A stretch of DNA of 48,467 nt from contig NC_057749.1 of the NCBI RefSeq assembly GCF_004010195.1, forward strand, positions 19,627,438 to 19,675,904. Direction: 5' to 3'. This stretch comes from Chiloscyllium plagiosum (lineage: Eukaryota). The notes beneath the pieces are model-generated. The model was not told the DNA's origin and ran no database searches. It was given only the letters and a program-made list of their open reading frames with translations. Positions 2,825 to 38,024 of the stretch are shown here, piece after piece. The position numbers were made by a program, and so were the translations under genes. Numbering within the stretch: position 1 is the stretch's first letter; every line of letters starts with the position of its first letter.

Positions 2825-4370
2825 GCATTCCATCCACCACTCACTCTCTCCACCACCAAGGTGCAATGGCAATACTGTATGCTAAATGCAAGATGCACTG
2901 CAGTAACTCACCAAGGTTCCTTGAACAGCATTTTCCAAACCCATAATTACTACCGTGTAGAAGGATAAGGGCAGTGAATGCATGAGAACACCATCACCTG
3001 AAGGTTTTCTTCCAAGCCTAACACTGTTCTGACTGGGAACACTTACTGTTCTTTCACTGTCACTGGGTCAACACGCTAACAGCATGGGATGGGTGTAGAA
3101 CATAGAACGATACAGCACAGAACAGGCCCTTTGGCGCACAATGTTTTGCTGAACATTTGTCCTAGCTTAAGCACCAATCCATGTACCTATCCAATTGCCG
3201 GTTAAAGGTCGCCAATGATTCTGACTCTGCCACTCCCACAGGCAGCGCATTCCATGCCCCCACCACTCTCTGGGTAAAGAACCTACCCCTGACATCCCCC
3301 CTATACCTTCCACCCTTCACCTTAAATTTATGTCCCCTTGTAACACTCTGTTGTACCCGGGGAAAAAGTTTCTGACTGTCTACTCTATCTATGCCTCTGA
3401 TCATCTTATAAACCTCTACCAAGNNNNNNNNNNNNNNNNNNNNNNNNNNNNNNNNNNNNNNNNNNNNNNNNNNNNNNNNNNNNNNNNNNNNNNNNNNNNN
3501 NNNNNNNNNNNNNNNNNNNNNNNNNNNNNNNNNNNNNNNNNNNNNNNNNNNNNNNNNNNNNNNNNNNNNNNNNNNNNNNNNNNNNNNNNNNNNNNNNNNN
3601 NNNNNNNNNNNNNNNNNNNNNNNNNNNNNNNNNNNNNNNNNNNNNNNNNNNNNNNNNNNNNNNNNNNNNNNNNNNNNNNNNNNNNNNNNNNNNNNNNNNN
3701 NNNNNNNNNNNNNNNNNNNNNNNNNNNNNNNNNNNNNNNNNNNNNNNNNNNNNNNNNNNNNNNNNNNNNNNNNNNNNNNNNNNNNNNNNNNNNNNNNNNN
3801 NNNNNNNNNNNNNNNNNNNNNNNNNNNNNNNNNNNNNNNNNNNNNNNNNNNNNNNNNNNNNNNNNNNNNNNNNNNNNNNNNNNNNNNTGCCTTCTGACTT
3901 TCCGCATAAGCCTACCATGGGGAACCTTATGAAATGCCTTACTAAAATCCATGTATACTACATCCACTGCTCTACCCTCATCCACATACTTGGTCACCTC
4001 CTCAAACAATTCAATATGACTTGTAAGGCAAGACCTACCCTTCACAAATCCGTGCTGGCTGTCCCTAATCAAGCAGTGCCTTTCCAGATACTCACAAATC
4101 CTATCCCTCAGTACCCTTTCCATTACTTTGCCTACCACCGAAGTAAGACTAACTGGCCTGTAATTCCCGGGGTTATCCCTATTCCCTTTTTTGAACAGGG
4201 GCACAACATTCGCCACTCTCCAGTCCCCTGGTACCACCCCCGTTGACAGTGTATCTATATCATGGACTGCAGCAGTTCAAGAAGTTGGCTCACCACCAAC
4301 TTCTTACGGTCAATTAGGAAAGAGCAACAAATGCTGACTTAGCTAGCGAAGCACATCCTGTGAAAGAATT
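2825..4370 (+). mobile_element. L2/Crack-like LINE 3' end (2825-3097 and 4249-4370) split by a CR1 insertion
   Basis: Decayed HSLHH...KMHCSNSPRFLEQHFPNP...GLQQFKKLAHHQLL C-terminus. A similar copy lies at 19830-20140. Confidence 0.6.
3098..4248 (-). mobile_element. Young 5'-truncated CR1 LINE (ORF2 RT and C-terminus, gapped)
   Basis: Open frames VPGDWRVANVVPLFKKG...YRPVSLTS...QHGFVKGRSC...YMDFSKAFHKVPH and EVYKMIRGIDRV...TRGHKFK...WNALP. GTTCTATGTTC tail. Possible GTGTA duplication at 3093-3097 / 4249-4253. Confidence 0.95.
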
Positions 4371-5244: not shown

Positions 5245-6850
5245 GTTAAAAATCACACAACACCAGGTTATAGTCCAACAGGTTTAATTGGAAGCACACT
5301 AGCTTTTGGAGCGACGCTACTTCATCAGGTGATTGTGGAGGGCTCAATCGTAACACAGAATTTATAGCAAAAATTTGCAGTGTGATGTAACTGAANNNNN
5401 NNNNNNNNNNNNNNNNNNNNNNNNNNNNNNNNNNNNNNNNNNNNNNNNNNNNNNNNNNNNNNNNNNNNNNNNNNNNNNNNNNNNNNNNNNNNNNNNNNNN
5501 NNNNNNNNNNNNNNNNNNNNNNNNNNNNNNNNNNNNNNNNNNNNNNNNNNNNNNNNNNNNNNNNNNNNNNNNNNNNNNNNNNNNNNNNNNNNNNNNNNNN
5601 NNNNNNNNNNNNNNNNNNNNNNNNNNNNNNNNNNNNNNNNNNNNNNNNNNNNNNNNNNNNNNNNNNNNNNNNNNNNNNNNNNNNNNNNNNNNNNNNNNNN
5701 NNNNNNNNNNNNNNNNNNNNNNNNNNNNNNNNNNNNNNNNNNNNNNNNNNNNNNNNNNNNNNNNNNNNNNNNNNNNNNNNNNNNNNNNNNNNNNNNNNNN
5801 NNNNNNNNNNNNNNNNNNNNNNNNNNNNNNNNNNNNNNNNNNNNNNNNNNNNNNNNNNNNNNNNNNNNNNNNNNNNNNNNNNNNNNNNNNNNNNNNNNNN
5901 NNNNNNNNNNNNNNNNNNNNNNNNNNNNNNNNNNNNNNNNNNNNNNNNNNNNNNNNNNNNNNNNNNNNNNNNNNNNNNNNNNNNNNNNNNNNNNNNNNNN
6001 NNNNNNNNNNNNNNNNNNNNNNNNNNNNNNNNNNNNNNNNNNNNNNNNNNNNNNNNNNNNNNNNNNNNNNNNNNNNNNNNNNNNNNNNNNNNNNNNNNNN
6101 NNNNNNNNNNNNNNNNNNNNNNNNNNNNNNNNNNNNNNNNNNNNNNNNNNNNNNNNNNNNNNNNNNNNNNNNNNNNNNNNNNNNNNNNNNNNNNNNNNNN
6201 NNNNNNNNNNNNNNNNNNNNNNNNNNNNNNNNNNNNNNNNNNNNNNNNNNNNNNNNNNNNNNNNNNNNNNNNNNNNNNNNNNNNNNNNNNNNNNNNNNNN
6301 NNNNNNNNNNNNNNNNNNNNNNNNNNNNNNNNNNNNNNNNNNNNNNNNNNNNNNNNNNNNNNNNNNNNNNNNTAATGTGACATGAACCCAAGGTCCCGGT
6401 TGAGGCCCTCCCTATGGGTACCGAACTCTGTTATCTCACTTTTTAGATTAGAATCAATCTAAACATCAGGTCATAGACAGAGAACACAGGGTGCTAACAC
6501 CTTCAACATATTGTCTAGCTATCACCATTGTTCACAGCTAACCCGAGAATGCAACTTTAAAAAAAATGTTTTGTGATTTACACATGAAAGAAGTGAAACT
6601 ATCACTGTATTCTAACAGATGAAAGGCTTAACAGACAATCAATTTTTCAATGTATAATTTCAGTTACATCACACTGCAAATTGTTGCTATAAATTCTGTG
6701 TTACGATCGAGCCTCCACTATCACCTGATGAAGGAGCGTCGCTCCGAAAGCTAGTGTGCTTCCAATTAAACCTGTTGGACTTTAACCTGGTGTTATGTGA
6801 TTTTTAACTTTGTACACCCCAGTCCAACACCAGTATCTCCAAATCATGAC
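5245..6850. mobile_element. PLE insertion with inverted terminal repeats (gapped)
   Basis: Minus-strand pLTR from 5245. Minus-strand FGTHREGLNRDLGFMSH (GIY-YIG C-terminus) at 6374-6426. Plus-strand pLTR with tail at 6427-6850. Near-TSD ACTGT(T)TAATGT at 5235-5246 / 6849-6859. Confidence 0.85.
6720..6758 (+). ncRNA. Minimal type I hammerhead ribozyme motif
   Basis: CAC-CTGATGA(6725-6731)-A-GGAGCGTCGCTCC-GAAA(6746-6749)-GCTA-GTG, core intact. Confidence 0.7.
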
Positions 6851-15735: not shown

Positions 15736-16574
15736 TATAGGCCAGTGTGCACAGGGATGTTGGGGAAATGGGACTTAACAGTGAGTTAAGTCAAAAGCAG
15801 GAGGAGTTTTGTTGATCTCAAGCTTTTGAATGCAGAGAAGCAGAAAGGATTGAGTTGGTGTATTCAAGCTGAGAGGTAATAATGGCATAAGTGAATGAGT
15901 CGGCAAGAATGAAAGAAACTATGAAATGGATGTGAAAATAGGTCATCTTCCCAGAATTTGGTTGGAGTACTAGAATCAACCCGAACACTCATAAAGATGT
16001 TACTGAATAGTCTGTCATCACAGTAACCACAAATTAAATTAATAATCATATAATCAATTTCTCAAATTTTGTTAGATGTTGGAATGAATTTGCATGAGCT
16101 TTTGTGTTCAGTTTTTTATAATGTAGCTTTACATTAAAATATAATCAGATTGATATTATCCCATATGGAAAGTCTTTTCAGTTCTGTAATTATGTGAAAT
16201 TATTCAATTTCTTCCTGATGTGTCACACTATTGAATGGAACTCTCATTTATAAACCATCCCCATTCTGAAAGAAGATTCTCCAAGGGTATCTCTAATGGA
16301 GTTAGACTTTGAACACCTCCCAATCAGCCAAGGTTGGTATGTAAACTGGAGCGTGTTACACAAAATGCTGCTTGGATGTGCTCGAGGCAGACTGAAGAGA
16401 AGCAAACACTGTTCAATTCACTCTGCTGAATCCTACCTTAAGAAAAATAACATTTTGTTATTTTTTGTTATTTTGTTAGTGTTTACCCAAAACCTAGAAA
16501 TATATAATGCAAAATTAAGCTAATAAGCCCATTCTAGCTGTGCTAAGGTTCATTTTTATAAGGGTCACTTCCCC

Positions 16575-17365
16575 CCCAATTCCTGTTCTCTTTAACATTC
16601 TACCCAGTCTAATTCTACTCTTCACTGTCAGTTCCATTTCCCCAATATCCCTTTAATATTCCATCCGGTCTAAATCTAACTCTGCCATTCACTCACTCTA
16701 CCTAATAATATCCCAACCAATCTATCCAGACTCCTGTTCATTCTCAGTATCCTTAAATATTCCCCAGTCTAATCACACTCTCCGTTACTCCCTGCACACT
16801 TTAATATCCCACCTTCCCCATCCTGAAGAAGGGCTTATGCCTGAAACGTCGATTCTCCTGCTCCTCAGATGCTGCCTGGACTGCTGTGTTTTTCCAGCAC
16901 CACATTTTTCAACACCTTCCCCATCATGCCTTACACCCTTTACTATCCCACCCAATCTGATTCCACACTCACCCTCACATCCCCAATCCTTTAATATCCC
17001 ACCAAAACTAATTCTCACAGCCACTCTACTCCCTATCTACCTCCCCTCCCTGTACACTTTGATATCTCACCGTCTAAAACCACTCTCTCCCTTCACTTTC
17101 CACACCCTTTAATATTTCAAGCAGTCTAATCCTACTCTCATGCTCACTCCCTGTACCCGTAATATCCTACACTCCCTTCACTTCCTAGACTCTTAGCTTT
17201 CCCACTTAGTCCAATTCTACTCTGCCGACACCATTTAATATTCTACTTAGTCTAATCCCCTCTGCCTCTTACTAGCTGCACTTTTCATCCCGGCCAGCCT
17301 ATCACCACTTCTGCTCATTTCCTCTGCCCTTTAGTACACAGCCTATCTAATCCTATTCTGTCCCT
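16575..17365. repeat. Degenerate pyrimidine-rich minisatellite (~45-50 bp unit)
   Basis: Recurrent CCAGTCTAAT(C/T)CTACTCTC...CTCCCTG.AC.C.TTAATAT.CC blocks. Confidence 0.7.
16823..16912 (+). mobile_element. 90-bp hammerhead-bearing PLE-derived insert with 13-bp TSD
   Basis: Begins CTGAAGA-A-GGGC-TTAT-GCCT-GAAAC-GTC-GAT. TSD CACCTTCCCCATC at 16810-16822 and 16913-16925. Confidence 0.85.
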
Positions 17366-24365: not shown

Positions 24366-26033
24366 CAGGCCCTTTGGCTCTCAAAGCCTGAAACTGTCTT
24401 CGCTTAAAATAATCCACATCCCACTATTCCCTTCCTATTCATGTAGTCGTTCAGGTGCTTCTTGAATGCTTCCATCACCTCCTCCGGTAATGCATTCCAA
24501 GCACTTACCACCCTTTGTGTGAAAAATGTGCCTCACACATCCCTTTTAAACTTTCTACCCTCACACCCTGAACCTGTGTCCCCTAATGATTGACCCTTCT
24601 ACCCTCCATTCTATCCAGGCCATTCACAATCTTATAAACTTCTATTAAGTCACCCCTCAACTTCCTGTGTTCCAGTGAAAACAAACCTGTCGATCCAACC
24701 TTTCCTCATAGCTAAAATCCCCCATACCAAGCAACATCCTTGTAAACCTTCTCTGTACCCTGTCCAGATCCTTCTGGTAGTGCGGTGACCATGGGCGTAC
24801 ACAATATTCCAAGTGTGGCCTCACTAAAATTGTATTATGCTCAGCACAACTTGTCTATCCTTATACTCAATGCCCCTTCCAATCAAGGCAAGCAAGCCAT
24901 AAGCCTTTTTTACTACCTTACCTACCTGCACTGCCACCTTCAGTGATCTGTGGACCTGCACACCCAGATCTTTCTGTATATAAATACTCCTAAGGGTTCT
25001 ACCATTCACTGTACAATTCCTACCTGTACTTGACTTTCCAAAATGCATCGCCTCATATTTATCTGGATTAAACTCCATCTGCAATTTTTCTTCTCATGCC
25101 TCCAATTAATCTATATTCTGCTGTATCCTCTGACAATCCTCCTCACTATATGCAACTCCACTAATCTTTGTATCATCCACAAACTTACTACGTAGACCAG
25201 TTACATTTTCGTCCAAATCATTTATGTAGATCACGAACAGCAGAGGTCCCAGCATTGATCCCTGTGGAACACCATTAGTCACAGCCCTCCATTCCGAAAC
25301 ACATCCTTCCAGCGCTACCCTCTGTCTCCTATGACTAAATCAATTCTGTATCCATCTTGCCAGCTCGTGCCTGATACCATGTGACATCACCTTTGGTACC
25401 AGTCTGTCATAAGAGACCTTGTCAAAGTCTTTACTGAAGTCCAGTTAGACAACATCAACTGCTTTTCCCTCAATCAACTTTGTCATCGCCTCAAAAAACT
25501 CGATCAAGTTAGTGAGGCACAACCTCCCCCTGCTCAAAACCATGCTGTCTATTGCTAATAAATCCATTTGCTTCGAAGTGCACATAGATTTTGTACCCGA
25601 AAATCTTTTCCAATGATTTCCTTACTACCAATGTGAGACTCACAGGCTAAAGATTTCCAGGATTATCCCTGCTACCCTTCTTAAACAGTGGGACAACATT
25701 TGCTATTCTCCAGTTCTCTGGGACCTGTGGCCAAAGGGGATACAAGGATATCTATCAATGCTCCAGCAATTTCTTCTCGTCTTCCTCAATATTTTGGTTG
25801 CAATCCCATGAGGACCTGGGGACTTATCAACCTTAATACTTTTTAAGACGCGCAACGCCTCTTCCTTTTTAATAGCAACTTGATTTAAACTTGATATTCC
25901 CTTCCCTGAGATCATCTTCCACCAATTATTTCTCTTTCATGAATATCGTGTTAAAATACTCATTTAGGACCTCACCTATCTCTTCTAGCTCAACACAGAT
26001 TCCCTCCTTTGACCTTGAATGGGCTAAACCTTT

Positions 26034-26242
26034 CAGGAGAAAGTGAGGACTGCAGATGCTGGAGATCAGAGCTGAAAATGTGTTGCTGGAAAAGCGCAGC
26101 AGGTCAGGCAGCATGAAGAAGGGCTTATGCCCAAAACGTCGATATCATTCCTGAAGAAGGGCTTATGCCCGAAACGTCGATTCTCCTGTTCCTTGGATGC
26201 TGCCTGACCTGCTGCGCTTTTCCAGCAACACATTTTTAGCTC
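26034..26242. mobile_element. 209-bp fold-back PLE mini-insert with tandem hammerhead motifs and 14-bp TSD
   Basis: 34-nt tail at 26034-26067. 47-bp inverted arms at 26068-26114 / 26197-26243. TSD TGGGCTAAACCTTT at 26020-26033 / 26243-26256. Confidence 0.92.
26147..26182 (+). ncRNA. Minimal type I hammerhead ribozyme motif (intact core)
   Basis: ATTC-CTGAAGA(26151-26157)-A-GGGC-TTAT-GCCC-GAAAC(26171-26175)-GTC-GATT, with an ACGT palindrome and a GUC cleavage triplet. Confidence 0.78.
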
Positions 26243-27345
26243 TGGGCTAAACCTTTACCCAGCTACCTTTTTTGCTTTTTGCTATTGACTTTTCATGACC
26301 CCTTTTAGCACTTCTAATTCCTTAAGTTCTTTCCTACTTTGTTATGTACTTCAAGGGCTTCATCAGTTCCCAACCTCCTAGACTTTCCTTTTTCTTTCTG
26401 ACTAAGGTCATAACATCCCCAGTCATGCAAGGTTCATATAACTTGCCATACCTATTCTTTACACCACAAGAACGTGCCACTCCTGAATTCTTATCAATTG
26501 CCCTTTGAAATACTCTCAGATTTGTAGATTTATCCTCAAACCACGTCCAATCAAATTTCTCCAGTTCCTGCCTAATATTGTTGTAGTTCGCCTTTCCCCC
26601 AGGTTAACACCGAGGACTGCTGTTATCCCTATCCATGAGTATCTTAAAACTTACAGTATTATAGTCACTACTCCTGAAGTGCTACCCCACTGAAACTTCA
26701 CTCACCTAGGTGGGCTCATTTCCCAAAATCAGGTCCAGCATAACCCCTTCCCTGAATGGATTGTTTTCATACTGTGTTGAGAATCCCTCCTGAATGGTCC
26801 TGAGAAATTCTGTCCCATTCAAGCCCCTAGGACATAGCGAGTCCCAGTCAATACACTCCTTGGTTCATTGGCCTATCTGATGCCGTGAGCTGCCTGGGAC
26901 CTGAAAATCTGGAATCCCTCCTTTGCTTAAACCTCTTCACCACTATCTCCCTTTTTAATATCTGTCTTAAAGTCCACCTCAGTGGCCAAACTTTGGATCA
27001 TCTGATCTAATATTTATGGGGCTTGGTGTCCCATAATGTTCCCACAGGTTCATAATGTTCCTGTGGGGCCCCTTGGGATGGTTTGTTCGGTTAAAGAAGC
27101 TATACAAACATAACCTGTTGTTTCATGTTTTGGAACCGTCATGTGGAAGGATGTGCAATGTTGGTGGGGTGGAGTTGATGGGAAGTGAGGAGCAGGTCAG
27201 GGCTGCTGCTGAGCTTGAAATGCAGCAGCTCACAGCCTCACATTGACTGTTAAACAGGAGTTCTCTGGTCAAGCTGAAGACAGTCAGCAAGTGCACAAAA
27301 TGCCTCTGACTAGACAATGCTTAATTCTGTCTGACTGGCAGCTCC

Positions 27346-29394
27346 TCTATCACGGAGGTCTTAGACGACAGAACACAGGAGAGGCTGGACCAGCCGCTAT
27401 CTCTGGACGAGCTGACCAAGGCCCTCGAGTCCTTCGAAAAGAATAAAACTCCTGGAAGCGACGGCTTACCGGTCGAGCTCTGTTCTGCTCTGTGGGACTT
27501 GATTGGCCAGGACCTGCTGGAGGTGTATGTCAGTATGCTTCGGGCAGGTACCATGAATGAATCCATGAGGAAAGGCATCATCACCCTCAATACAAGCGGA
27601 AGGGGGAAAGAGGGAGAAACTCAAAAATTGGAGACCAATCTCACGGTTGAATGCGGATTACAAAATTCTGTCAAAGGTAACCGCCAACCGGGTCAGGTCT
27701 GCTCTGGGGTCAGTGATTCACCCTGACTAAACTCGTGCTGTACCGGATAGGAAGATCGCTGAGACTCTCGCATTCCTCAGGGATACGATCGCCTATGTGC
27801 AGGACAGAGGGTTAGACACCTGCCTGATCAACCTGGACCAGGATATCACACAGCAAAATGAGAAATGTTCTCTCCAAAATGGGCTTTGGGGAGGGAATCT
27901 GCAATTGGATCAGACTGCTCTACACCAACATTGTCAGTGCAGTCTCAATCAATGGGTGGGAATCAGATAGCTTCCCAGTCAGATCTGGAGTCGGGCAGGG
28001 CTGTCCTCTCCTGCCTTGTTTGTGTGCTGCATAGAGCCTTTTGCTGAGTCCATCAGGAAGGATGCGAGCCTGAGAGGGGTGACTATTCCTGGCAGCTGGG
28101 GCCTGCAGGTTAAGGCCTCCCTGTACATGGATGACGTCGCCGTTTTCTGCTCGGATCCTCTGTCCGTGCGCAGACTCAAGTGCATATGTGACCAGTTTGA
28201 ACGGGCCTCAGGGGCCAAGGTAAACCGAGGCAAGAGCGAGGCCATGCTCTTTGGGAACTGGGCCGACCAATCCTCGATCCCCTTCACAGTCAGGACCGAC
28301 CACCTGATGGTGCTGAGTATTTGGTTCGGCGGGGGGGGGGGGGGGGGCTGGGGCGTGCGCCAAGTCTTGGGAGGAGCATATCAGCAAAGTGAGGCAGAAA
28401 CAGGGCAGATGGAAGCTACGGTCGCTCTCCATTGTGGGAAAAAACCTGGTCATCAGGTGTGAGGCACTGTCAGTTCTGTTATACGTGGCACAGGTCTGGC
28501 CTATTTCCAGAACCTGTGCTGCTGCAGTCACCCAGGCCATCCTCCAATTTATATGGAGGTCAAAGATGAACTGGGTCCGAAGGGACTTGCTGTACAAAGA
28601 TCTGGGCAACGGGGGAAAAAATACACCCAATGCCACCCTCACCCTGATGGCGACCTTGTGGCTGCATCAAGCTGTGCGTGGATCCCCGGTACGCAAACAC
28701 CAAGTGTCATTACGTACTGAAGTTCTACCTGTCCCCGGTGTTGCGAAGGATGGGCCTGGCCTCGCTGCCGCGGAACGCTCCGAGTAGTTGGACTGTTCTG
28801 TATCACCTGTCCTTCGTGCAGAAGTTTATGAAGAAAAACACCTTTGACCACAAGTCCATCAGGAAGTGGTCAGCACGTAGTGTCCTTGAGACCCTACGGG
28901 AAAAGGAGTCCCGAGCAGCGCCGTGACGCGGGACTCCGTGCTCTACGGTCTGTTCCCCGGGACACACACCAGACGAACATCAACTGTGTCTGGAGGATCA
29001 TCAACTCGGTGAAGGACGCTCTCTGGGCGGTCTGAAACCTGTTGATCTTACAGCTGAAGGAGTTGACCCTGACTGAGTGTTGCAGACTGGCACATTCCAA
29101 AGTCCAGGACTACGTGTTGAGGGACGCACTGAAGCTTGGGGCAACTGCCACCAAGGTGCGGTGGGGAAAGACCATCTTGTAACATCTGCCTGCCTAAGAA
29201 GAATAGGGGGCCCACGCAGTCATTTGGGCTCTGCTGACGCTTCAGCTAAATATATGGACATATGATTGATTGACGTACAGACCTGTATATACAGATGATA
29301 AATTCTGATCTCTGTATGTAAATGTATGGCATGACCAACTGTACAGACCATCAAATTATTTTATGAATAAAGTATATTTTTGAAATAAAAAAAA
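27346..29394 (+). mobile_element. 5'-truncated Tx1/L1-clade LINE (ORF2 RT pseudogene) with polyA and 13-bp TSD
   Basis: KTPGSDGLPVE, NWRPISRLNADYKILSK, RQGCPL, YMDD (28124-28135) and GAKVNRGKS. AATAAA at 29366 plus an A-tail. TSD GACTGGCAGCTCC at 27333-27345 and 29395-29407. Confidence 0.95.
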
Positions 29395-29621
29395 GACTGG
29401 CAGCTCCACCCAGTGGAGGCGCTTCAACTGATTTCCCTCTGATGGCTGAGAGATCAGTTTGGCGAGAGTACCCGTGTGTGGTGTATGTGTGTGTATAGAG
29501 CAAGGGTGTCGGATTTCTCCAAAAGCCTTTGGTATAATGTTTCCCCAGGACTTGAGTGGCTGTGCTGTGTTGTGATGTGTAGGAGGTCTGCCGGTGGGAG
29601 TCAGTATACTTGCCTTGCGAT

Positions 29622-29638
29622 TGCTGACTCACACGTCA
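29622..29638. promoter_or_regulatory. AP-1/MARE-like site adjoining a CRE half-site
   Basis: TGCTGACTCAC-ACGTCA in non-repetitive DNA ~650 bp upstream of the candidate ATG. Motif match only. Confidence 0.3.
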
Positions 29639-29689
29639 ATGGGAAGAACTGGGAAGGGGAGGGGAAAGGGGAGAGCCTGTAAACGTGGC

Positions 29690-30190
29690 TGAGAGTGTAG
29701 AAGCAGAAAGACAGGGGCTGTGAGAAAGAAGCAGCTCAGAGAGAGGGATAGCGGCAGATATAGAGAGATTCTCTCTCTCTGTCAGTCTGAGTGTAAGAAA
29801 GAAAGAAAGATAGATACATAGAAAAACAGGCAGAGAAAAACCAAGAAAGAGAATCAATTTTAGTTAAATAGAACGAGACAAACGAGGAGGAACAGAGTGA
29901 CACACATTCATAGAAAAGCAAAGGAAGAAAGAGAGAGAGATGCAAAGAAAGAGGTAGACACAGGCATAGAGGGGAAGAAAGATAGAGACATACACATAGG
30001 CAGAGATAGGTGGAGACATATATAAGCAGAGAGAGACACACACCAATTCACAAACAGAGACACCAGGAAAGTGAAATAGATAAGCAAATAAAAGCAGAGG
30101 AGAAAAGAGAGAGAAACTCAAGGAAACATCTTTATAGACTGAGAGAGACAGAAGAAAATAGACAGAGAGAGAAAACAAAGTAACAAAGGT
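29690..30190. repeat. GA-rich low-complexity tract
   Basis: Degenerate (GA)n/(GAAA)n/(GACA)n with strong purine skew. Confidence 0.85.
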
Positions 30191-37896: not shown

Positions 37897-38024
37897 GAGA
37901 AAGTGAGGACTGCAGATGCTGGAGATCAGAGTTGAAAAATGTGGTGCTGAAAAAACCCAGCAGGCCAGGCAGCATCCGAGGAGCAGAAGAGTCGACATTT
38001 TGGGCATAAGCCCTTCTTCAGGAA
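37897..38024 (-). mobile_element. 128-bp hammerhead-bearing PLE-derived insert with 8-bp TSD
   Basis: Minus strand starts TTCCTGAAGAAGGGCTTATGCCCAAAATGTCGAC and ends in the tail. TSD TTATTGAG at 37889-37896 / 38025-38032. Confidence 0.82.

Follow-up and report, generated by a model that had tools for sequence, protein, structure and literature searches.

A hairpin insert with one intact and one broken hammerhead motif in Chiloscyllium plagiosum, probably a truncated Penelope-like element insertion

Results

Anatomy of the insert

The locus lies in a 48,467-nucleotide stretch of the Chiloscyllium plagiosum genome (the window; coordinates refer to it). A 209-bp insert (26034-26242) is framed by a target-site duplication, TGGGCTAAACCTTT, whose left copy (26020-26033) is identical in 14/14 positions to the right copy (26243-26256) identified by repeat analysis; neither copy is assigned a strand. 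The insert opens with a tail (26034-26068, minus strand), which corresponds to the final ~34 nt of the sense unit of the element (...TCTGATCTCCAGCATCTGCAGTCCTCACTTTCTCCTG) and is found in the antisense (left) arm only. Measured as the overhang of the left arm past the end of the right arm, the tail is 33-35 nt long, depending on the assignment of a 2-nt TG overlap with the duplication. The inverted arms (26067-26114 and 26197-26244) are 48 nt each, 98% complementary, and separated by 82 nt. The left arm, an antisense copy of the unit (26067-26114, minus strand), ends ...GGCAGCAT and is 5'-truncated ~20 nt downstream of the hammerhead. The equivalent arm of 29 other hairpins extends to variable depth into the antisense hammerhead.

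The loop and right arm contain four segments on the plus strand: a partial sense copy of the hammerhead module, GAAGAAGGGCTTATGCCCAAAACGTCGAT (26115-26143); the linker ATCATTC (26144-26150); an intact minimal hammerhead motif (26151-26181, 0 mismatches to a 31-nt pattern); and the remainder of the sense (right) arm (26182-26242), which has no tail and ends at the proximal reverse-transcription start (...ACATTTTTAGCTC). TCATTC in the linker is the element's natural sequence just 5' of the hammerhead, and long copies elsewhere read ...CTTTCCTCATTC followed directly by CTGAAG (L044, L049, L056, L062, L064, L067, L068); the A is the junction base. The end point of the right arm is shared by a tail-less single unit at 16823-16911. 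The tail sequence also terminates the sense arm, in direct orientation, at 37900-37935 (minus strand) and in L032-L038.

A sequence-only reading of this DNA had already described the 209-bp insert, the 14-bp duplication and the 34-nt tail, all of which we recover, the tail within the range given above. It had also described the inverted arms, which are present but measure 48 nt instead of 47 bp. The anatomy of the insert is not due to chance, yet it is ordinary for this genome.

Hammerhead motifs and genomic surroundings

Pattern matching placed an intact motif at 26151-26181 and, upstream of it, a second one at 26113-26143, and confirmed the 38-nt spacing (start to start) and the two core mismatches of the upstream motif that the sequence-only reading had stated. 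Further matches in the window lie at 16823-16853 (plus strand, 1 mismatch) and 37991-38021 (minus strand, 3 mismatches); in a shuffled-sequence control, 0 matches were expected. The intact motif comprises CUGAAGA, an unpaired A, helix II GGGC/GCCC, the loop UUAU, GAAA and a palindromic ACGU. Its C17 is C26178; from the cut site to the proximal end the distance is 61-64 nt, and to the distal end ~97 nt. In the upstream motif (C17 = C26140), A stands for C3 at 26113 and for G12 at 26133, where CCCG has become CCCA. A26113 is a base of the left arm, and the motif copy starts only at 26114/26115, leaving it without C3. G12 is essential in the hammerhead, and the upstream core is dead.

The hammerhead identification is based on our reading of the core and on the description of minimal hammerheads in the available excerpts of Cervera and de la Pena (2014, PMC4209133). 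Rfam hammerhead models gave 0 matches at gathering score across the whole window, and a permissive Rfam scan of 25950-26330 gave no hammerhead match at E up to 10. Plant microRNA precursor models matched the long stem below threshold (37.6 and 31.6 bits where the gathering score is 85, and 20.3 bits where it is 93) and were discarded as generic hairpin matches.

The hairpin lies beside the remnant of an older retroelement, in which a reverse-transcriptase fragment (25106-25339, minus strand) was recognized by RVT_1 (E 2.1e-07, 31.3 bits, cut-off 29.6). This remnant also contains ORF fragments. The ORF listing of the window contains no long Penelope-like element (PLE) ORF. A flank search for an empty site or paralogue among sequences cut from the genome found only the locus itself; a resemblance of the L023 flanks to those of the window, noted by eye, was not borne out by this search. 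A single poly(A) single-cell RNA run showed no locus-specific RNA on the unique flanks. Lying next to an old remnant, the insertion is dead and shows no indication of being transcribed on its own.

A large family with one tail per hairpin

The intact 31-nt motif has 30,624 exact matches in the 3.56-Gb genome, and the reversed control has 0. A genome search with the 209-bp insert as query returned 1293 candidates, of which 40 were scored. Over almost the full query (position 1-4 to 205-209), at least 39 other loci match at 85-89% identity. In all 30 loci that were aligned, the antisense arm with the tail is on the left and the tail-less sense arm on the right, although these loci were the best scorers against the window's insert and the uniform tail-left layout is biased by this selection. 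Their flanks are unrelated, and subfamily bases co-vary between the two arms of a copy. The central junctions mostly differ, with few pairs in common (L020/L021, L010/L014); this minority of junction-sharing hairpins may have been copied from hairpin templates or may reflect favoured microhomology. In 23 of the 28 copies with script-found boundaries, an exact flanking repeat of 10-18 nt was present, and the other 5 had 6-8 nt (shuffled controls: mean 4.5-7.0 nt). A rule that seemed to emerge from the aligned loci, with TTTTTAGC in the tail-less arm and TTTTCAGC in the tail-bearing arm, was rejected, as most copies in a positional sample and in the RNA reads carry C (at 26237, in 41/42 and 45/47 reads). 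The pattern appeared among the aligned loci because the matches most like the query had been selected.

The positional sample consisted of the first 30 motif matches on contig 1, which represent 27 insertions and were classified by eye. An inverted partner arm was found in at least 15 of the 27. Exactly one arm carried the tail in 14/14 evaluable hairpins, and the same was true of L034 and L036-L038. The sense arm ended at most 6 nt upstream of CUGA in 22 of the 30 motif matches and 7-42 nt upstream in none, while the other 8 extended 43 to ~300 nt into conserved sequence. Such long copies with conserved upstream sequence rule out that the unit is only ~92-127 nt long. The longest upstream extension followed, ~300 nt, is non-coding, and two long-arm hairpins (L067/L068) turn at least 83 nt upstream of the ribozyme. 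Parts of the element also occur as single arms with or without tail, and hairpins may be tailed on either side.

Recurrent tandem junctions

The sequence-only reading had proposed a genome search for the same double-motif junction. We found the hammerhead-to-hammerhead junction of the window in 8 places at up to 2 mismatches (control 0). The other 7 near-identical junctions all have outer architectures different from that of the window, comprising single-arm units, hairpins tailed on the opposite side, and one triple array. Neither the tandem junction nor the hairpin layout, which at least 39 other loci share, is special to this locus. The left junction was found in 28 places at up to 2 mismatches; its 31-nt sequence has one other exact match, on contig C24.

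Related junctions are more numerous. ACGTCGA-N(1-6)-ATTCCTGAAGAAGG has 118 genome matches and the fully overlapping tandem junction 20, giving at least 138 tandem junctions with exact flanking sequence, among which that of the window is one variant. AACGTC-N(0-18)-GATTCCTGAAG has 143 matches (control 2). Among the first 100 listed of these 143, the overlap is with the GAUUC that immediately follows the cleavage site in 22, the sequence is GAT+GATTCC in 12, and the following GAU (CTGGATGC) is the landing point in ~14. Arrays contain up to four junctions with a 38-39-nt period, and private variants are common to the tandem and antisense motif copies inside one insertion, as in L037. Since the sampled tandem junctions fall mostly on GAU microhomology, they are best understood as template jumps, and their sequences point to the tandem motif being a recurrent product of such jumps. 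The sequence-only reading had mentioned a one-off template jump as its fallback; the jump appears essentially right, but with 8, 118 and 20 junctions of the respective types it is not a one-off.

Discussion

A probable truncated PLE insertion

The 209-bp insert is very probably a non-functional, extremely 5'-truncated PLE insertion that stems from one integration event. The available parts of Craig et al. (2021, PMC8557442) describe PLE insertions as 5'-truncated, often with an adjoining inverted truncated copy, and with a 30-40-bp tail that is often at one end only. The locus shows all of these traits: a tail confined to the left arm (33-35 nt at 26034-26068), 5'-truncated copies with an inverted truncated neighbour or partial tandem and, as read from the sequence, a minimal hammerhead upstream of the reverse-transcription start sites. 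In this respect, the PLE frame of the sequence-only reading, including a minimal hammerhead in need of a partner, holds up, as it fits the tail, duplication and minimal hammerhead published in PMC11167929 and in the available text of PMC8557442 and PMC4209133. Autonomous PLEs encode a telomerase-like reverse transcriptase together with a GIY-YIG endonuclease; a Pfam search of the genome for the latter (PF01541) returned one marginal 34-aa match, on a 1-kb contig, and linked no such element to the unit.

The insert could have arisen as follows. The PLE enzyme would cut both target strands ~14 bp apart, giving rise to the duplication, and each target 3' end would prime reverse transcription on the hammerhead-bearing end of a PLE RNA, probably the same RNA for both arms. 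One cDNA would start at the distal internal site and yield the left antisense arm with the tail; the other would start at the proximal site, ~34 nt upstream, and yield the right sense arm ending ...TTTTTAGCTC. The right-arm cDNA would pass through the hammerhead to the 5' end zone of the RNA (TCATTC), presumably the RNA end, then switch back to the GAU immediately 3' of the ribozyme, recopying ~29 nt of the hammerhead module. The left-arm cDNA would stop ~20 nt short of the ribozyme, and joining of the two products would leave a 48-bp inverted repeat whose loop holds a complete hammerhead and a partial one. The hammerhead would lie in the loop simply because, in the parent element, 61-64 nt separate it from the proximal start site.

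Alternative explanations

The sequence-only reading had proposed that the tandem ACGU palindromes pair in cis, and had called the hairpin the best candidate for a compact, self-cleaving element of the retrozyme type, with the cut after C26178. Two motifs do lie on one strand, 38 nt apart within the 82-nt loop, and tandem junctions recur in arrays of up to four. Minimal PLE hammerheads are also thought to be dimeric, with weak in vitro cleavage by dimeric or trimeric constructs according to the available sections of PMC4209133. However, dimeric hammerheads work crosswise, each core cutting C17 of the other copy, so that cleavage at C26178 needs the core of the upstream motif, in which C3 is missing and A stands at G12; C3G abolishes cleavage by the anole PLE ribozyme (PMC11167929). 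The helix I partner of the upstream motif is replaced by left-arm sequence held in the 48-bp stem, and the one core that is intact (26151-26173) would have no target within reach except C26140, where helix I would be 2 bp. In predicted folds, the hammerhead-like cis fold has -15.8 kcal/mol against an MFE of -19.2, and ACGU:ACGU pairs with a probability of 0.007-0.008 (below 1%) against 0.78-0.93 for the competing GUCGAU:GUCGAU, which buries both C17 residues. The poly(A) single-cell RNA run had 1228 reads on the repeat and 0 on the unique flanks, with a depth of 2-6 in the motif-1 bin and no reported pile-up of molecule ends. Finally, the junctions vary by locus and track GAU microhomology, as expected of by-products. 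This reading is highly unlikely; the arrangement is one variant among at least 138 tandem junctions, in a genome with 30,624 exact motifs. Judged from its sequence, the additional motif is a broken by-product of template switching and does not appear arranged to self-cleave.

It is also improbable, if somewhat less so, that the hairpin itself is a self-propagating non-autonomous element, with a master hairpin RNA copied whole and the central differences explained by later deletions in an unstable palindrome. The fixed outer ends common to at least 39 other near-full-length matches, the co-variation of subfamily bases between arms, the few junction-sharing pairs and the exact match to the left junction on contig C24 would fit such propagation. 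Against it, the left end of the hairpin is always the distal end of the tail, where tailed sense units also stop; it thus behaves like a priming site, unlike the 5' terminus of a hairpin RNA. Identical parts exist as single arms with or without tail and in hairpins tailed on either side; most central junctions differ and show filler or microhomology typical of joining; and the L067/L068 hairpins turn far upstream of the ribozyme. A MITE-like DNA transposon with terminal inverted repeats can practically be dismissed. Small size, a 48-bp inverted repeat and a flanking direct repeat are shared with such elements, but the inverted repeat is not terminal, as the tail lies outside it on one side only, the flanking repeats vary between copies (10-18 nt) instead of having the fixed length of a MITE, and single-arm units with duplications of their own are common.

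Wider implications

With truncated PLE insertion as the preferred explanation, the locus itself matters little, and the interest is in the family. We advance with considerable doubt the view that tens of thousands of mini-insertions are an in vivo record of PLE enzyme action that includes three footprints: the single tail, the 5' end zone and re-initiation at GAU. A single tail in each hairpin suggests extension of the two target strands from the two start sites on one RNA, or on a pair of RNAs held together by the ribozyme. The 5' end zone is sharp, lies 1-6 nt upstream of the ribozyme and frequently carries an extra G, which suggests that copying ran off a short capped leader starting at the hammerhead. 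The basis for a capped transcript start is the base preceding ATTCC in genome counts (G 4,874, A 2,278 and T 941 against 21,632 for the natural C); among the sampled extra G's, 2/5 lie in the target duplication and 2 more may belong to the left arm. The third footprint, re-initiation at the GAU next to the cleavage site, leads to arrays of 35-39-nt ribozyme modules and suggests telomerase-like repeated copying by a telomerase-related reverse transcriptase. If so, the double motif of the window would represent a single round of repeat addition.

The family is a useful natural data set, as thousands of genomic products mirror the two-strand, two-site priming observed in vitro (PMC11167929). Junction statistics could inform second-strand joining and the start position of PLE RNA. 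For ribozyme and retrozyme surveys the family holds a caution: where PLEs abound in a genome, minimal hammerheads that lie close together or in tandem can be scars of integration.

Comparison with known systems

In LINE-1 twin priming, the second target strand also primes, and inverted and direct segments result inside a single duplication. There, the second primer anneals internally, and the inverted part corresponds to another segment of the element than the direct part; here, in contrast, a single 3'-terminal segment is copied into both arms, starting from two fixed sites.

Animal non-LTR retrozymes, as presented in the available excerpts of Cervera and de la Pena (2020, PMC7229834) and Li et al. 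(2026, bioRxiv 10.64898/2026.07.22.740005), are likewise PLE-related, hammerhead-bearing and non-autonomous. According to these excerpts, whole monomers of ~150-450 bp follow one another head to tail, every one bearing a canonical type I ribozyme, and the expressed RNAs, linear and circular, measure ~170-400 nt. The insert contains no head-to-tail whole monomers and no unit flanked by two cleavage-competent ribozymes, given the loss of C3 and the G12-to-A change in the upstream motif. Unlike in the retrozymes so described, the 38-nt module alone is duplicated, one copy is broken, and the rest is inverted.

Closer parallels are offered by the minimal hammerheads of PLE terminal repeats, which the accessible portions of PMC4209133 describe as massively dispersed, mostly in truncated PLEs, sometimes as opposite-strand pairs 100-700 bp apart, and with an unpaired base 5' of stem II. 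As far as those portions go, the present motif shares the CUGANGA...GAAA core, the unpaired base, a helix III that is near-absent save for a small palindrome, and an occurrence in thousands of mostly solitary copies and in opposite-strand pairs. Helix II is 4 bp here and 7-8 bp in the schistosome families, and the 30,624 exact 31-mers exceed the ~4,000 copies in coelacanth and ~9,000 in Xenopus reported there.

In purified form, the anole PLE protein cuts both strands and extends them, and its reverse transcription starts at two adjacent internal RNA sites, the sequence between them being the tail; the hammerhead cut site, ~85-92 nt upstream of the start site, is dispensable for insertion (Frangieh et al., 2024, PMC11167929). 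The insert likewise has its hammerhead a short distance upstream of two alternative starts that bracket the tail. With the PLE insertions in that study and in the excerpted text of Craig et al. (2021, PMC8557442), it shares an inverted truncated copy next to a direct one, a tail at one end and, within its family, duplications of variable length. It differs from the insertions described there in that its arms are only ~80-130 nt long, forming a bare hairpin without ORF or terminal-repeat body.

Structure of the hairpin and of the underlying unit

The 209-bp insert (26034-26242) is flanked by a target-site duplication, TGGGCTAAACCTTT, at 26020-26033 and 26243-26256, and contains inverted arms of 48 nt (26067-26114 and 26197-26244, 98% complementary, spaced by 82 nt). 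A 30-nt direct repeat pair lies within it, 38 nt from start to start, and the 31-nt hammerhead pattern is matched without mismatch at 26151-26181 (motif 2) and with 2 mismatches at 26113-26143 (motif 1). The duplication, arms and tandem motifs described in the sequence-only reading were thus borne out.

The window holds two further hammerhead copies, one at 16823 (+) and one at 37991 (-), where shuffles gave an expectation of 0. Both belong to single-arm units. The minus-strand unit (38024-37900), flanked by short direct repeats (CTCAATAA), has a tail in direct orientation; it starts with TTCCTGAAG at 38021, crosses a hammerhead with 3 mismatches, and ends with CTGCAGTCCTCACTTTCTC at 37900. 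The plus-strand unit (16823-16911), with a 12-bp duplication (accttccccatc), lacks the tail, starting with CTGAAG and ending with ATTTTTCAAC. The different ends of the two copies indicate that sense units end at either of 2 places about 34 nt apart. The left arm of the hairpin is an antisense unit terminating at the distal one of these places, and the right arm a sense unit terminating at the proximal one; the "tail" is the 33-35 nt of left arm that overhang the end of the right arm.

The plus-strand single-arm unit lies among degenerate repeats of the form tttaatatcccacc...tctaat (surroundings 16560-17100). About 700 bp to the left of the insert lies an antisense RVT_1 reverse-transcriptase fragment of an older retroelement (25106-25339), and the insert has other ORF fragments of that strand on either side, for which no family match was obtained. 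A further group of ORF fragments (27325-28787, plus strand), resembling retroelement reverse transcriptase by eye (...KTPGSDGLP..., ...YMDDVAVF...), sits in the most GC-rich part of the window (0.51, 28001-30000). At 3162-4276 and 5246-6458, up to six reading frames are open simultaneously, suggesting low-complexity or simple-repeat DNA.

Genome-wide family and the 5' end zone

The hairpin belongs to a very large family. The exact 31-mer hammerhead motif occurs 30,624 times in the genome (reversed control, 0). Querying the 3.56-Gb genome with the insert gave 1293 candidates; among the 40 scored, at least 39 other places matched nearly the whole query at 85-89% identity. The left junction of the hairpin recurs at 28 places with at most 2 mismatches. 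Alignment of 30 matching loci showed outer ends common to all, unrelated flanks and a mostly copy-specific centre, with the antisense arm entering the antisense hammerhead to varying depth before turning into the sense arm. Exact flanking repeats, measured by script, were 10-18 nt long in 23 of the 28 copies with placeable boundaries and 6-8 nt in the remaining 5 (shuffled-flank control mean, 4.5-7.0 nt). Two hairpins (L016 and L017) share one insertion site (AGCTAGGTTRACT) within flanking repeats that are paralogous, and differ in their central and left junctions, reflecting either a preferred target or one duplicated locus whose centre changed later.

For a positional sample, the first 30 motif matches along contig 1, corresponding to 27 insertions, were classified by eye. 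An inverted partner arm was present in at least 15 of the 27, and all 14 evaluable hairpins had exactly one tail, on varying sides. In 22 of the 30 matches the sense arm ended 1-6 nt before CUGA; in the other 8 it carried on for 43 to about 300 nt through a conserved sequence lying upstream (...CTTTCCTCATTC|CTGAAG). This indicates that the unit forms the terminus of a longer element and that a strong stop, or an RNA end, lies at the ribozyme's 5' boundary. Genome-wide, ATTCCTGAAGAAGGGCTTATGCCC is preceded by C, the natural upstream base, in 21,632 cases, by G in 4,874, by A in 2,278 and by T in 941. The G excess may be a copied cap, and many A-preceded cases are perfect palindromes (GGAATTCC). 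One of the sampled hairpins, L045 (G000:C1:484346-487376), has a sense arm that starts just past the ribozyme, contains nothing but the hammerhead and terminates at GTCGATTC beside the duplication, suggesting that priming can also occur, as a minor site, immediately 3' of the ribozyme. At locus L040 (G000:C1:27683-30713), about 150 nt of unrelated sequence, attached to the hammerhead unit at its 5' edge, lie within the duplication AGAGTCCATTAATG. The arrangement resembles a chimeric retrocopy that arose when copying jumped from Penelope-like retroelement (PLE) RNA to another RNA.

Tandem junctions and self-cleavage

The tandem motifs had been read as a compact, retrozyme-like cis-dimer, with a template jump as the fallback. 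The hammerhead-to-hammerhead junction is not unique; with at most 2 mismatches it occurs at 8 places including the window (control, 0). At the other seven places the insertions are independent of one another and vary in architecture: L032, L033 and L035 are single arms bearing two motifs, L034, L037 and L038 are hairpins whose tail lies on the right, and L036 is a triple array. Motif copies inside one insertion share private variants. The pattern ACGTCGA-N(1-6)-ATTCCTGAAGAAGG has 118 genome matches, some of them in runs of four with a period of 38-39 nt. Three arrays (G000:C15:63676070-63676209, C16:2044274-2044340 and C16:37530374-37530434) hold 2-4 tandem-junction matches each at a period of 35-40 nt, implying 3-5 hammerhead modules. 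The junction with full overlap, GTCGATTCCTG, is present 20 times, and AACGTC-N(0-18)-GATTCCTGAAG 143 times (control, 2). Among the first 100 of these 143 listed, acceptor points cluster at GAUUC just after the cleavage site (22 overlapping, 12 GAT+G) and, in about 14, at the next GAU in CTGGATGC. Together with the sense arm of L045, these junctions bear the signs of a reverse transcriptase that runs to the 5' end zone and then primes again on GAU microhomology, not those of a selected tandem. The template jump is supported.

By an established geometry, drawn according to its legend in Fig. 1A of PMC4209133, the two copies of a dimeric hammerhead share helix III, and each core works on the cleavage-site residue (C17) of its partner. 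A cut after C26178, the C17 of motif 2, would therefore require the motif 1 core, which lacks C3, because the copy begins only at 26114/26115, and has G12 replaced by A at 26133; where its helix I strand should be, there is stem sequence. The sole intact core, that of motif 2, could reach no C17 but C26140, with a helix I of just 2 bp. The 209-nt RNA is predicted to fold at -116.7 kcal/mol (z = -11.85) with a 48-bp stem. In the predicted loop, two GUCGAU stretches pair (probability 0.78-0.93), burying both C17 residues, and ACGU:ACGU pairs stay below 0.01; a hammerhead-like fold reaches -15.8 kcal/mol versus -19.2 for the minimum. Nearest-neighbour folding is blind to tertiary contacts and protein, so this result is not decisive. 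With a defective motif 1 core and the competing GUCGAU pairing predicted to be favoured, the retrozyme-like, cis-dimer reading with cleavage after C26178 is not supported.

RNA reads

In one poly(A) single-cell RNA run, 1228 reads fell within the repeat, with a depth of 2-6 in the motif 1 bin, no reads on the unique flanks of the insert and no reported pile-up of molecule ends. As 97% of the mapped RNA continued for at least 20 letters into sequence unlike the window, these reads came from other copies. In run X1, labelled as a different organism (coded organism A), contigs cover the repeat (26019-26256) at high depth, reach the right flank only at low depth (26274-26324) and do not cover the left flank, and the family is therefore probably common to related species.

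Comparison with published PLEs

No reverse transcriptase/GIY-YIG ORF linked to the unit was found among window ORFs, in a genome GIY-YIG search or within about 300 nt upstream, which is the principal gap in the PLE assignment. The PLE frame of the sequence-only reading is supported by its match to published insertion, tail and minimal-hammerhead features. Craig et al. 2021 (PMC8557442) describe PLE insertions as 5'-truncated, often with an adjacent inverted truncated copy, and often bearing a 30-40-bp tail at one end. The protein of an anole PLE cuts both strands of the target and extends them, and reverse transcription starts at 2 adjacent internal RNA sites, the interval between them being the tail; the hammerhead, located a short way upstream of these sites, cleaves in a protein-dependent manner and is dispensable for insertion (Frangieh et al. 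2024, PMC11167929). As described by Cervera and de la Pena 2014 (PMC4209133), minimal hammerheads are located in PLE terminal repeats and massively dispersed, mostly as single motifs attributed to truncated PLEs, some in opposite-strand pairs; in vitro, single motifs were inactive and dimers or trimers weakly active. The hammerheads described there share with the window motif an unpaired base 5' of stem II. The window hairpin is consistent with all these features. Any wider value lies in junction statistics across the whole family rather than in the single-locus hairpin itself, which is a further member of an already known type, the PLE insertion.
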